Source of the DNA: Eledone cirrhosa | Lineage: Eukaryota | DNA length: 64,000 nucleotides | Assembly (NCBI GenBank): GCA_964016885.1 | Contig: OZ024745.1 | Location: forward strand, 83,948,001 to 84,012,000 | Direction: 5' to 3' | Shown here: in pieces, positions 771 to 55,698 of the stretch | Layout: every line of letters begins with the position of its first letter | How positions within the stretch are numbered: position 1 is the first letter of the stretch | Notes under the pieces: model-generated | Seen by the model: only the letters and a program-made list of their open reading frames with translations | The model's database searches: none | What the model was told of the DNA's origin: nothing | Program-made: the position numbers and the translations under genes

Positions 771-815
771 GTCACTGAAGAGGTCACAGAGTGTGTGACG
801 AAAGGACTATGAAAC
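771..815 (+). ncRNA. Minimal type I hammerhead ribozyme in a PLE pLTR
   Basis: GTCA-CTGAAGA-G-GTCAC..GTGAC-GAAA-GGAC-TA-TGA. One extra nt after A9, tiny helix III, CUA triplet. Confidence 0.75.
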
Positions 816-1000
816 AACTATCTGGTTGTGGAACCAACCAACCAACCAGAAATTTATAAATTTCTAGATTTGTAAATTTATAAATTTATAAATATATAAT
901 AAATTGAAGTGAAAGCAACTGGTGCGTGTGTTTCTTATTGGCAACATGACCCTCCCAAAGTATAACAATATATACATATATATATATATATATATATATA

Positions 1001-1200
1001 TAGGCAAATGTTTGACCCCGACGGCAGAGCTCAAACCGTTTCGACGGCTATTTCTGGACAGAGTCCATAAATCGCCATCGAAACGACTTGAGCTCTGCCC
1101 TCGGGGTCAAACATTTTTCTATTACCCACTCTACTACCCTAAGTATTGAGTACTCTGGTGCGTTATGGTCCATCTGGTTCCTTACCACACTTCCTTCGTT
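1001..1200 (+). mobile_element. Fold-back fragment of a TA-inserted repeat family carrying the 3' half of an HHR
   Basis: Imperfect palindrome 1001-1122 followed by TATTACCCACTCTACTACCCTAAGTATTGAGTACTCTGG. The same family occurs at 18503-18585, 33720-33918 and 37451-37640. Confidence 0.75.
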
Positions 1201-1233
1201 TTATATATATATATATATATATATATATATATA

Positions 1234-1385
1234 AGGGGCACAGAGAGTGCTAAAATGTACGTTATTCCGGGTTGATCGGAGGTAACCACAGTAAGTAAGG
1301 TACTCAATACATAGCAGAGTATAACAGTTTTAATATAGATGAGATTCTACAGGACTAGAACTGTTTCATTCATTAGAAATCATCA
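1234..1385 (-). mobile_element. Solo pLTR fragment related to the 1401-4270 PLE, with the HHR truncated at C3
   Basis: Similar to 1405-1530. The minus strand reads TGATGA-TTTC-TAAT-GAAT-GAAA-CAG..CTG-TA-GAA; (TA)n lies on both sides. Confidence 0.75.
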
Positions 1386-50634: not shown

Positions 50635-50762
50635 TTCCCTTTACGATCTGAGTTCAAATCCCGCCGAGGTTGACTTTGCCTTTCATCCTTACGGGGTCGA
50701 TAAAATAAAGTACAAGTAATGCACTGGGTAATTGCTGGCCTTGTGCCTAAAGTAGAAACAAG
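50635..50762 (+). mobile_element. 5'-truncated tRNA-derived SINE
   Basis: Nearly identical to 20865-20990; flanked by AGTATTCTGTGTAAT / AGTATTTTGTGTAAT (TSD-like). Confidence 0.87.
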
Positions 50763-52809
50763 TATTTTGTGTAATATAATTAAGAAAATCACAAACTGTG
50801 TGCTAAAGGGTTATGTGTCTCCAGAAAATAAAACAAAAGCATAACGTCAAAATGATTATGAAAGAATCTATTGCGTATCAAATGTTTTCTCCTGCAATAT
50901 TCTGTCGAAAGATTTTCTTCAGTAGAACTCGAGGACTATTAACTTTGTGGTTTTGTTTCTTTTATGGTATTCATGGGCAGTGAGAATGGATGGGTTTTTA
51001 TAGTTGTTTTTTCTTTTTTTTTTTAGTTGTTACAATTTTCTTTACATTTGTATGACACAAACAAAATGAAGTTAATTGTTTGATAAATCACTGCTTATAG
51101 TAAATCATTTAAAAACGATTGTTCCAATGTTGTAATTAAAAGATGTATGTATTTTCTGCATGTTTCTGTTTGAGATAATGACTTTCTGCTTCAGTTTCAG
51201 ATAAAACCTGTTGTCGTTAAAACTGATACAGACGTTGCCAGTGCTGGCAATATTAATATTGTTTTCATGTCCAAGTTTCAAACACATTCAAAATCAAATT
51301 ACTATATTGGCTTACAAATAAAAAAATAAAAAAATATGTTGAAGGTCTTTCTTTTCATCCTTTCCATATTATTTTGAATTTAAGCTTCTTTCTTCGCCCA
51401 CCCCCATACGACAACGCATGGCCCCTTACTGGCCATTCATGTGGAGGTAGCCAACATCCTAGTAATTAGATATCAAATCACTCACAGGCAGAGCGTGAAA
51501 ATTTAGGAGAGGTCCCATCTTATATGAATATGAGGCCATTATTTTTAGAATGTTTTAAATACTTATCAAATAGAATATTATAAAACAAGGAATTCTTGTT
51601 TCTTTTTTTTTCAATTTTTCTGTTACTGGTTTCAGTAACTGAAACGCCTCCATGCTTGAGCTCCACCTTCACAGTTGTTTTATTGTCCATCACACCAACC
51701 CTAGTACTTATTTCTGCCTGGTTCTTATTTACTCAATGCATATTTGTCTACTAGATAGTTTTAACACATGAGTTTAACTGGGGATGTTATATCAAAGAAA
51801 TAAACATGTACACACACATACAAGCCCCCACACACAATTGCGCACACACTAATACAAACACTGACACGCACTTCCAAACTTTAGTCACAGGGTATTGGTT
51901 AACCCGATGCTATAGCGGAAGACGCTTATCTATTGTGCTGCGCAGTGGGATTGAATCCGGAACCCCATCGTTACGAATCAAAGTTATTAAATACGCAAGC
52001 ATGCTTGCCTGTAAAGTACATGTAGCTCGTCATTAGTATTTGTATATATGTTTTATATGAAAGTTATGACATTTGAAACTTCAACTCTAACTGATTGTCA
52101 TCTTAATCTTCCCTTGACATTCACCTATTTCTCCCCATTTAATTAATATCTTAGTGAAAAGGTTCAGTCTTGTCCTTCACTGTACGTGCCACCATTTTCT
52201 AGATGACAATGAAGAGAAAGCTATTAATCATGATTTTAACCATATAATTTCAGTCATATAATTTATAAATGTTATTTGTTTTTCCATCAGTTTTCTAATT
52301 TGTTATCAAATAAAATTTTTTCTCTTCAATTACTCTAGGAACCGTATGAATAATAATGAATACACCTCCATCTTTATAATGTTGTTCATACATCTTACTT
52401 TTACAATCTCGCAAACTATCTAAATAACGAAATTTTGTTTTAAAATCTGCAGGAATAGTAACATGGAAAATTACTAACATGAACCATTTCGTTTAAATTA
52501 GCAGAAAAGAACCAAATATTCCGATGATCAATTGACATTTCAAGCGGAAAATCTATGACCTCATTTGTGTGATATAAATTGTAATTCCATACCTATAGAA
52601 CAGCCTGAATGGAGAGAATATTATACATTTATGGACTGCGAAAATTATTTATTATGAAATAATTGCTTTCACTGCTCCTTTTGTAAATCAAATTTAGAAT
52701 CTCGTCTGCTTTGTGTAAGATGTAATTTTCTGCACTTCCCTTTTATTTATTTATTTTTGTTTGCAATAAATGAGTTTATGTGTTGGGTAACATCCAAGAA
52801 AAAGAATAA

Positions 52810-54300
52810 TTCTTTCTTTATTGGCCACAAGGAACGAAACATGTAGGACAACACAGAAGACAATGTGAATTTACAAAAAATGAAAGCGTGTAAACAAATA
52901 AAACATAAAAATAAGCAATAAAATTATAGCAATAAACATTCACCAATTGGGGGAGCACCACCCAGGGGTAACTTAGAAACCCCTCTTATACTAAACCATC
53001 CTAATCTCCAAGAGCACCATAGGAGTGCGCTCATCTCCCCTCCAACCTCTCCGGGCTACAGGCGCTTCCACTCGGACCAGTCTCGCTACGTTCACCGACT
53101 TTTTGACAAATGTAATGTGGGAGTGGCAGCACTTCCTTCTCCAATTTCCCTTTCCTTTCCAAGTAGAACTTGAAAAAGATGATGAAGCCTTGGCTGAAAA
53201 GGTAAGTCTCTGTTTTCAGTCCTTTCAACCGCGTTCACTACACAACCTCTCTTGCTACAGCCACCAGACAGAGGAACACTGCCTGCCTTTCCTGACCGAA
53301 AATCTGCGGCGTGCGATCTTCAAGATGGAGTCGGTCTATAGCTGCAATGCATGGACATTGGACGTTTGTTTTGAACTGGCAATAGCCTGGTAGCCCTGTC
53401 AAGTCAGAGACTTTTGGAAATTGTTCATAGTCCCCCGCCTCAAATGTTCTCCGGAAAAGACAGATTAGTTCAATTTCATCAACATCCAGATATTCTCCGA
53501 GAAAGTTGTCGAACATTCTTGTTTCGCGTTGAAGAAGTACTGGATAGCCATTCTTGCCGCAAGCACGTCACTTACAACGCCATTTCTAATCAGTTCATCT
53601 AGTTTAGCTTCTAATTCCCACTCCGTTCTACTTTTCTCCTATCGCTACCTCTTTACTAAAAGCTATCGACTCTACTCTGATCGCTCTCGAGAGAGAGCAC
53701 CCCACCACCTGCTGTTCACGTCTGCTCCTTTCAACCAGTGCTTAACTAATGTGCTAATCCGATCACTGCAGACTTTACGCACCGGGAACGGCGTTTTAGG
53801 CTTCGGAATCTATCTAGGTCAGCCATGCAAACCTTGAATTTGTTTTCTGAATAGGTGACCGCCGAAATGGTGGGCATTCTATGCTATCTTTATCTACGAA
53901 CCTAATCAAAAACTAAAGTACGATCCGGATGACTCAATGCGATTGGTCCAAATCAACGCTGGCGCATTTAGGAAATCTAGTCGGTATCTTTCAGACAGTT
54001 GGAACTACCTGATCAGGTTCTTGAAGCTTTTGGACACAATCTCAGCATACGCCCAAGATGCCGTTTCAGTACACAGAGACCACAGAGTACGTCTTGTCAA
54101 GAGTCTCACTTTTGAAGAGCACTGATATGTTGCTAAACTGCTTGACCTTTGCAACGGGTTGTATATCTGTGGTTGCCCAAACCTCAAACGGAATGCTTAT
54201 GGTACCTCGACTGTTACAAGTTTGGTTCCATGACCAAAACATTCTTCTCTCCTGCTAAAATCTATATGAAATCATTTCCGATATAACGGAGCCGTTCCTG
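52810..54300 (-). mobile_element. Degenerate L1/Tx1-like LINE ORF2 3' portion
   Basis: C-terminal remnants (..KTNVQCP..AVFLCLVAVAREVV..KGLKTETYL..FFKFYLERK) with a T-rich 3' UTR and A-rich end on the minus strand. Confidence 0.6.
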
Positions 54301-54602
54301 CGAGAGTGCTTTTGTTGTCGTTGTTGTCATTGTTATTGCTGCTGTTGCTACTGTTATCTTGTTGTTGCCGTTGCTGTTGTTACTGCTGTTGCTGCTTCTG
54401 CTGTTGTTGTCGCTACTCTTGTTGCGACTGTTTCTGCGGCAGTGGTCGTTGTTCTTATTGTTGTTGTCGTTGCCGTTGTTGCTGCTTCTGCTGTTTTTTT
54501 GTTATCCTTGTACATATGTATATTTATATATGCGTATATATTTATATATGTATATTTTTATATATGTATATATAAGTGTTTTCATATATATATATATATA
54601 TA

Positions 54603-55698
54603 TAGTAGAATAATCGAGTATCGAAAAATCGGCGCACGAGTTCACGATAAACAAAATTCGAGATGAGCGGCAGAGGGCTCTATAATTCAAATAAATTAGA
54701 GCTATAACTATCGTTAAAATACCGTCACACGTAGAATATGTCTACAATCAACCAAATAACCGAAAAGTTCGATATGGAAGATTCGGGACACTCAGATAAA
54801 TTATCAATAAATCAATAAATGAAATGAATGTAAAATGCATACCCGGACCCACTAGAGAGATGGAATATCTAGCTTCTTGGGTTTCTGTAAATCCTTAAAC
54901 CGTCATCTATCAGCTCATATAAAAATATAAGACTTACAGATAATCGGGGGACTGGAGTTACTTCATCAACGAGCTTCGTCCGAATGGATAAAAAGACAAG
55001 ACCCAGGCTAAAAATACGCACATGGATTTCAGCAAGGGAGATAACCTTTATATCCGCAAAAATATTCGGAAAAATGTGGCAAAAACACATATCGAATAAG
55101 AGTGCTCAATAGACATGTTAAAATAAACAGAGGCTATTCATCATTTAATAGAATCGACAAAAAATGAACAATAAAATTAACTGGTCAATAGCTAAGTCTA
55201 GAGCTAAATATAGTAGAATAATCGAGTATCGAAAAATCGGCGCACGAGTTCACGATAAACAAAATTCGAGATGAGCGGCAGAGGGCTCTATAATTCAAAT
55301 AAATTAGAGCTATAACTATCGTTAAAATACCGTCACACGTAGAATATGTCTACAATCAACCAAATAACCGAAAAGTTCGATATGGAAGATTCGGGACACT
55401 CAGATAAATTATCAATAAATCAATAAATGAAATGAATGTAAAATGCATACCCGGACCCACTAGAGAGATGGAATATCTAGCTTCTTGGGTTTCTGTAAAT
55501 CCTTAAACCGTCATCTATCAGCTCATATAAAAATATACAGATAATCGGGGGACTGGAGTTACTTCATCAACGAGCTTCGTCCGAATGAATAAAAAGACAA
55601 GACCCAGGCTAAAAATACGCACATGGATTTCAGCAAGGGAGATAACCTTTATATCCGCAAAAATATTCGGAAAAATGTGGCAAAAACACATATCGAAT
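54603..55698 (-). mobile_element. Retrozyme-like tandem, 608-bp period, 1.8 copies; variant HHRs at 54842-54973 and 55450-55574
   Basis: Near-identical direct repeats between (TA)n. Minus strand: CTCG-TTGATGA-AGTAACTCC..GGATTTACA-GAAA-CCCA..CTAGA..TCTAG-TGGG-TC-CGGG. Confidence 0.8.

Follow-up and report, generated by a model that had tools for sequence, protein, structure and literature searches.

Hammerhead motifs at the Eledone cirrhosa locus

The 64,000-nucleotide stretch of the Eledone cirrhosa genome analyzed here (contig OZ024745.1; G000:C5:83.948-84.012 Mb of an assembly of 3.0 Gb), referred to as the window, has a GC content of 33.8% and contains 96 (TA)n tracts, among which hammerhead ribozyme motifs, coding Penelope-like elements (PLEs) and non-coding tandem repeats are inserted. 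The closest homologue of the 464-aa reverse transcriptase (RT)-endonuclease frame in the window was an Octopus vulgaris protein with 64% identity. The original prediction for this DNA, made by a model from the sequence letters, was that a diverse set of non-autonomous, PLE-mobilized retrozymes had accumulated here.

Using a type I descriptor (CUGANGA, stem II, GAAA, stem III, UH, stem I), 18 matches were found in the window, whereas 200 dinucleotide shuffles made segment by segment averaged 0.02, and a slightly wider descriptor gave 20 complete motifs (shuffle means 0.075 and 0.15). Variant cores accounted for three further complete motifs, UUGAUGA at 54969 and 55570 and CAGAAGA at 13734, and a family-wise homology search back on the window added 20 copies which were mutated, truncated or doubtful. 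The total of 43 motifs in 16 families, with variant, broken and half copies included, is close to the predicted figures of about 35 motifs and 14 families. The claim that nearly every unique segment between TA tracts carries a motif was overstated; 31 of 51 inter-TA segments (at least 100 bp, starting before 45 kb) did so.

Twelve related motifs, drawn from the window and elsewhere in the genome, had an invariant core and double changes at 10 of 14 predicted stem I and II pairs. Because the descriptor selected these motifs, base pairing as such is no surprise; what the comparison adds is the covariation. In a genome sample of 59 fixed-position 10-kb stretches (590 kb total) 43 motifs were found compared with 0-1 in five shuffles. 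Loop III was a perfect palindrome, which the descriptor does not demand, in 30 of these 43, and this is the dimer-type design of the PLE hammerheads in PMC4209133 (here and below, statements attributed to publications refer to the available portions of their text). Predicted circular folds were more stable than shuffles, with z-scores of -3.2 to -8.6 (12 shuffles each).

At the gathering score no Rfam hammerhead model matched the window and a single tRNA-like match was the only result, while a 2-kb scan with the hammerhead models gave matches at E-values of 2.7 and 7.9 only. In the whole-window E-value scan TA-hairpin microRNA models dominated among the 150 of 275 matches listed. The suggested Rfam check thus missed the motifs, likely as a result of their long or minimal stems. 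Sub-threshold Rfam scores would also be expected if the motifs had arisen by chance in AT-rich repeats or the arrays were assembly artefacts, and assembly errors could explain some of the block duplications described below, but the shuffle counts, the covariation and the recurrence of arrays at dozens of loci, each with its own variants, make this scarcely credible. Judged by core and stems, the type I hammerhead motifs in the window are real.

Non-coding tandem families

Five families (K, H, I, J and P; Table 1) are tandem repeats free of open reading frames (ORFs), with young copies genome-wide. Together with family G they hold 21 of the 43 window motifs, eight of which are in one H array. 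The longest stop-free stretch was 48-83 codons for K, P, H, I and J; no ORF longer than 101 codons was found in these five or in the hammerhead-less family M, and none longer than 133 codons in G. Neither a PLE profile search nor blastp detected PLE protein sequence in K, P, H, I, J or M, with coding controls positive. Head-to-tail arrays of K, P, H, I and J were found on many chromosomes; in K, H and I at least two consecutive units each carry a type I hammerhead, P is alike except for its variant core, and J is mostly one unit with partial repeats. Copies which are 97-100% identical lie on many chromosomes with differing flanks, indicating mobility by new insertion. In these own-genome searches the best 39-40 candidates were scored per family, so the copy lists are skewed to young copies. 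Two insertion pairs (L027/L028 and L240/L241) have identical flanks and are segmental or tandem duplications, so independent insertions are overcounted in the best-match lists.

Family K had 1948 first-look candidates, the best copies being 99-100% identical, with arrays of up to about 16 units. The H repeat period of 500-560 bp corresponds to 451 bp plus a TA tract. Family J has a period of 313 bp in the window and about 316-318 bp elsewhere, and its hammerheads are intact in most other copies. The predicted unit periods were thereby recovered at 313, 442, 472, 485, 500-560 (451 bp plus TA tract) and 608 bp. The P family is very young and still uniform, and the UUGAUGA core, in which U3 is opposite G8, was present in 39 of 39 copies; the P motif (54835-54985 on the minus strand of the window, and L090-L103) has a stem II of about 80 nt and a stem III of 34 nt. 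A U3-G8 pair in the hammerhead core may reduce activity. Family G has short terminal direct repeats in two loci, with no coding sequence detected. A further candidate retrozyme family was noted at L083:8902-9535, where there are three identical hammerheads, two 310 bp apart and one on an inverted arm.

Coding PLE ends and remaining families

Families A, B, D, E, O and R, with 15 of the 43 window motifs, are the 3' ends of coding PLEs, as predicted for some of the hammerheads. RT and/or GIY-YIG sequence lies upstream on the same strand in the window for A, B, E and R, and RT or endonuclease sequence was found upstream in extended loci of O (5 of 6) and D (4 of 6); for E, 4 of 13 other loci have endonuclease sequence upstream. 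The figure of about 14 families is not supported for retrozymes, as D, E and O, which had seemed to be short non-coding units, belong with A, B and R to coding PLEs. What stands of the predicted diverse retrozyme set is several unrelated ORF-free tandem families, dispersed in (TA)n and with PLE-type ends. The claim that most motifs lie in non-coding units held narrowly when counted by motif (21 of 43, including the eight of the one array) and failed by family, with six families non-coding, six coding-PLE ends and four assigned to neither group. These last (C, F, L and N; seven motifs) are known from their window copies alone.

We considered whether all motifs could be 5'-truncated debris of the 3' untranslated regions (UTRs) or pseudo-long terminal repeats (pLTRs) of coding PLEs, with no true non-autonomous families. 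This holds for six of the 16 window families and for family Q, and a modified scan of the genome sample, which gave 44 motifs in 20 sequence clusters (1-2 motifs in shuffles), placed 25 motifs in clusters tied to coding PLEs against three in the known non-coding families H, K and G, with three in a group spaced by 310 bp and 13 unassigned. Genome-wide, the hammerheads are mostly PLE ends. K, P, H, I and J, however, are complete head-to-tail cycles without coding sequence, so that the 5' neighbor of a unit is another unit and not an ORF; these ORF-free arrays contradict a debris origin for the five families, and such an origin for the set as a whole is very improbable.

Family D was considered as a Naiad element (N-terminal endonuclease), which was rejected since the endonuclease lies downstream of the RT in L252. 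The CAGAAGA core of this family (window 13722-13790; L226-L237) was seen in the nine copies listed, and the window copy at 37258 has the usual CUGAAGA. The window copies of Q contained no hammerhead, that of the parent PLE being further upstream. Q had been taken for a fixed hairpin element since 40 of 40 top matches had this form, which proved to be query bias; 57 other copies vary in length, and as the parent is a coding PLE this reading was rejected. At L310 (G000:C3:268.827-268.832 Mb) a PLE has a stop-free frame of 818 codons whose first codons are the Q tail, and this resembles the RT start site inside an ORF described for an Anolis element.

Table 1. Features of the window (positions are those of the 64-kb stretch; pLTR, pseudo-long terminal repeat)
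Feature	Position	Strand	Description
Family K, candidate retrozyme	17219..17876	-	485-bp ORF-free unit plus 173-177-bp repeat; cores 17862, 17377; palindromic stem III
Family H, candidate retrozyme array	28946..33395	both	451-bp unit plus internal (TA)n; inversion at ~31902
Family H hammerheads	29356, 29869, 30406, 30950, 31472	-	
Family H hammerheads	32003, 32501, 33065	+	
Older H subfamily copy	17977..18491	-	84% identical; 442-bp repeat; hammerhead 18290
Older H subfamily copy	15355..15827	-	~77% identical; degenerate hammerhead 15593
Family I, candidate retrozyme	15855..16651	two inverted arms	472-bp unit; long-stem-III hammerhead 16420 (+); mutated copy 16152 (-)
Family J, candidate retrozyme	34806..35309	-	313-318-bp unit; mutated hammerheads 34955, 35268
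Diverged J copy	16667..17134	-	inverted arm; hammerhead-like core 16835
Family P, candidate retrozyme	54605..55697	-	608-bp unit plus 492-bp repeat; UUGAUGA hammerheads 54969, 55570; long stems II, III
Family G	13860..14594	inverted	truncated 3' end of 2.33-2.39-kb non-coding unit; hammerheads 14107 (-), 14493 (+)
Family M	19352..20054	-	577-bp ORF-free tandem unit; PLE-type ends, 40-bp tail
Coding PLE family A	2..975	+	GIY-YIG end of ORF 2-565; pLTR hammerhead 775
Family A pLTR fragment	35331..35715	-	hammerhead 35519
A-related coding PLE	37983..39925	-	RT-endonuclease frame 38524-39918; hammerhead core 38228
Coding PLE family B	1234..4270	-	endonuclease fragment 3540-4115; ~2-kb 3' UTR; hammerhead 1531
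Family B, further motifs			inverted arm with hammerhead 4206 (+); half motif 1385
Family D	12531..13796	both	coding-PLE 3' UTR/pLTR; CAGAAGA hammerhead 13734 (+); mutated copy 12689 (-)
Further D ends	36527..37320		36579 (-), 37258 (+)
Coding PLE family E	26230..28901	+	ORF 26366-27280 (GIY-YIG); hammerhead-like motif with U3-A8 core ~28797
Family E decayed fragment	7243-7504		
Family O	37687..37941	+	truncated coding-PLE 3' end; hammerhead 37843
Coding PLE family R	39946..44667	+	ORF 40069-42665 in two frames; hammerhead 44483; deleted inverted copy 40015
Family Q	37444..37638	+	hairpin-like inverted 3' tip of coding PLE
Other family Q copies	1003-1201, 18490-18583, 33720-33916		
Family C	5040..5210		decayed hammerhead pair 5102 (-), 5144 (+)
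Family F	8533..8640		half motif in short inverted insert
Family L	18695..19123		E-like inverted insert; GCAA replaces GAAA; doubtful hammerheads
Family N	35753..36411		inverted insert; doubtful hammerhead cores 36050, 36170
SINE-like ~190-bp repeat	9323-9516, 20814-20996, 28131-28327, 45832-46035, 49694-49883, 50636-50775, 59188-59378, 60205-60625		

Insertion anatomy

All 18 distinct K insertions and all eight P insertions examined had a fixed 3' end adjoining (TA)n. The 5' ends of the non-coding families vary, consistent with 5' truncation, and inverted 5' arms are common. Two alternative 3' ends were found in K (177/283), I (320/396), J (313/+44-49), H (61/119) and M (537/577), with a tail on one arm only in these families, and a single 3' end was found in the eight P insertions examined. 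For 38 of the 43 sampled motifs the 400 nt that follow included TA sequence, compared with 39% for randomly chosen positions in these loci. PLE anatomy with the same end features has been set out in PMC8557442, and in PMC11167929 the tail is linked to AT-rich cleavage and to a pair of internal start sites for the RT. Given these PLE-type ends and the proximity to TA there is a strong inference, drawn from sequence, that PLE machinery mobilizes the non-coding families.

Family M had 2854 first-look candidates and has inverted arms. No hammerhead, tRNA or Rfam ribozyme was found in its window copy or in L285-L293 and L311, and the family appears to be a PLE passenger without a known ribozyme.

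Array structure and mode of amplification

The window is thus probably best explained as a pile-up of TA-flanked insertions bearing type I hammerhead motifs. Six coding Penelope-like families contribute to it, together with a 2.4-kb non-coding family and no fewer than five short tandem families free of ORFs, and the non-coding families would be non-autonomous non-LTR (long terminal repeat) retrozymes copied by the PLE reverse transcriptase-endonuclease. Read-through transcription across an array would be followed by hammerhead cleavage, for most families probably as dimers given the palindromic loop III; unit-length RNA or short multimers would be released and probably circularized. The PLE protein would then nick (TA)n, and reverse transcription would start inside the RNA from one or two fixed positions. 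This cycle would account for the fixed 3' end, for a tail on one side only, for the inverted arm and for the copies of more than unit length. Arrays also lengthen later by local block duplication, as seen in the sequences, and repeated hits on the same TA tracts may account for the clustering of the elements.

Units within an array were nearly identical. Mean differences per unit pair were 1.0 within arrays compared with 4.6 between arrays for K (67 units), 0.85 compared with 5.8 for P (69 units) and 1.5 compared with 5.0 for H (77 units), and whole-array fixation of variants was frequent (31 and 68 array-variant events, 4 and 12 private). Array-specific variants were common to both inverted arms in L191, L192 and L262, and in L262 each arm is a multimer, with private variants and TA-gap length matching between the two. 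Contigs from two sequencing runs of unrecorded library type showed neither joints nor ends and are uninformative on expression. The near-identity of units fits repeated copying of one monomer, as in the circular-template model put forward in PMC4209133 and PMC7229834, and we would give a circular RNA template slightly better than even odds. That the young arrays were born in one step by rolling-circle reverse transcription, in a genome of some 2x10^5 hammerheads and with the UUGAUGA family and the 2.4-kb retrozyme included, is a more tentative proposal which may well be wrong.

Several observations weigh against retrozyme amplification of this kind. Comparison of the non-coding units with eight coding-PLE ends, in a genome which has many more PLE families, gave microsatellite-like matches only and no autonomous partner was identified. 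Minimum-energy folds of the monomers for seven motifs gave a clear full hammerhead shape for family I alone. The arrays L187, L188, L267 and L269 have a periodicity of three, four or six units which breaks down at the array edges, and the 472-bp family I array L268 is heterogeneous. Family M has the same insertion anatomy as the hammerhead families, PLE insertion in vitro did not require hammerhead cleavage (PMC11167929), and one of nine Xenopus retrozymes cleaved in vitro (bioRxiv 10.64898/2026.07.22.740005).

Several of these points would be accounted for if PLE mobilization began from linear read-through RNA, the hammerhead being inherited baggage, and long arrays arose after insertion by satellite-like unequal crossing-over between the short direct repeats; to them can be added the P core, which may weaken cleavage, and the local-amplification route proposed in the same preprint. 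A multimeric circle as the source of the higher-order periodicity was rejected for the four periodic arrays, in which failure of the periodicity at the array ends points to local block duplication, reflecting either early satellite formation or assembly duplication; L193 and L194 (period 2) are compatible with a multimeric circle or local duplication. Yet a linear-RNA origin would have to account for arrays of up to 13-16 units almost without unit differences, for the multimeric L262 arms with their common variants and gap length, and for hammerhead cores and stems kept across subfamilies which are 77-84% identical, and we hold it to be rather unlikely.

Genome-wide abundance and comparison with known systems

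Stratified estimation from the modified scan of the genome sample gave 231,000 motifs genome-wide (bootstrap 138,000-332,000). Variant cores were excluded from this estimate since their counts in the 590-kb sample were not above shuffles. Single 10-kb stretches held up to five motifs. Compared with the average, motif density in the window is about fourfold higher, one array alone contributing 8 of the 20 motifs. Across all sequence examined there were 37 motif clusters. The PLE hammerhead study PMC4209133 (Cervera & de la Pena 2014) reported 2,000-9,000 minimal motifs per genome, and also described the U3-A8 core; our sampled figure of about 2x10^5 is far higher, but the descriptors differ and the comparison is a rough one. 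Retrozyme copies number up to 120,000 in axolotl and about 5,000 in mussel (PMC7229834; Cervera & de la Pena 2020). Some 2x10^5 hammerheads in dozens of families would, if true, exceed the axolotl figure, and if the sampled estimate holds this would be the largest hammerhead count among the published genomes compared, and one invisible to Rfam.

It has been argued that animal retrozymes derive from PLEs as non-autonomous elements, and their consensus lengths have been given as 51-972 bp (bioRxiv 10.64898/2026.07.22.740005; Li, Clavereau & Pollet 2026). The 313-608-bp units of E. cirrhosa fall within this range, so the unusually long monomers of the original prediction are not new. They resemble metazoan non-LTR retrozymes in being non-coding and tandemly repeated with a single type I hammerhead in each unit, in having GC below 45%, in forming dimers to multimers and in co-occurring with PLEs. 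The E. cirrhosa families differ in their visible (TA)n insertion, PLE tails and inverted arms, an anatomy which was not found in the available text of those reports, and in that many unrelated families, known from DNA sequence alone, occur in one genome. The non-coding unit of 2.4 kb also lies beyond the preprint's repeat search, which ended at a period of 1000.

With PLE pLTR hammerheads (PMC4209133) and C-terminal-endonuclease PLEs (Craig et al. 2021, PMC8557442) there is agreement in the position of the hammerhead in the terminal repeat, an extra unpaired base opening stem II, a palindromic stem III, the U3-A8 variant, the many motifs left alone or on the opposite strand by truncated copies, the tail confined to one end and the bias to microsatellites. 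The tails here are about 40-150 bp compared with 30-40 bp in published PLEs, many stems II or III are very long, and the CAGAAGA and UUGAUGA cores are family-wide. The closest analogues of family M are the Chlamys MRC1-type elements (PMC8557442), which are likewise non-coding, pLTR-forming, multicopy head-to-tail PLE passengers. The Chlamys elements share 3' ends with autonomous families, whereas no such sharing was found here among the eight coding ends.

Our literature searches found no cephalopod hammerhead study, most subscription papers being outside their coverage, and the word 'ribozyme' does not occur in the available text of an Octopus vulgaris repeat annotation (PMC13282606). New here are the cephalopod case, the roughly 2x10^5 intact motifs estimated by sampling and the family-wide UUGAUGA core. 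As the class, the PLE link and the size range have been described, we regard the findings as an extension of known biology to cephalopods rather than as a system of a new kind; with its abundant hammerheads and clear PLE insertion anatomy, the genome is a good test bed. PLE mobilization of animal retrozymes has so far been based on co-occurrence and pLTR similarity, and the young families described here bear the PLE insertion signature itself, their arrays allowing a direct test of the circular-template model of 2014. If the one-step rolling-circle reading is true, the genome of this octopod would preserve a record of how rolling-circle reverse transcription has acted in an animal.

Other repeats in the window

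A SINE-like (short interspersed element) repeat of about 190 bp, which is not TA-targeted, is present in about nine window copies and gave 91 matches in the genome sample. The tRNA-like Rfam match (31.8 bits, 61446-61516 on the plus strand) is probably a SINE head. Decayed coding fragments resembling those of long interspersed elements were judged by eye from the sequence at about 5280-6450 (+) and about 52990-54250.

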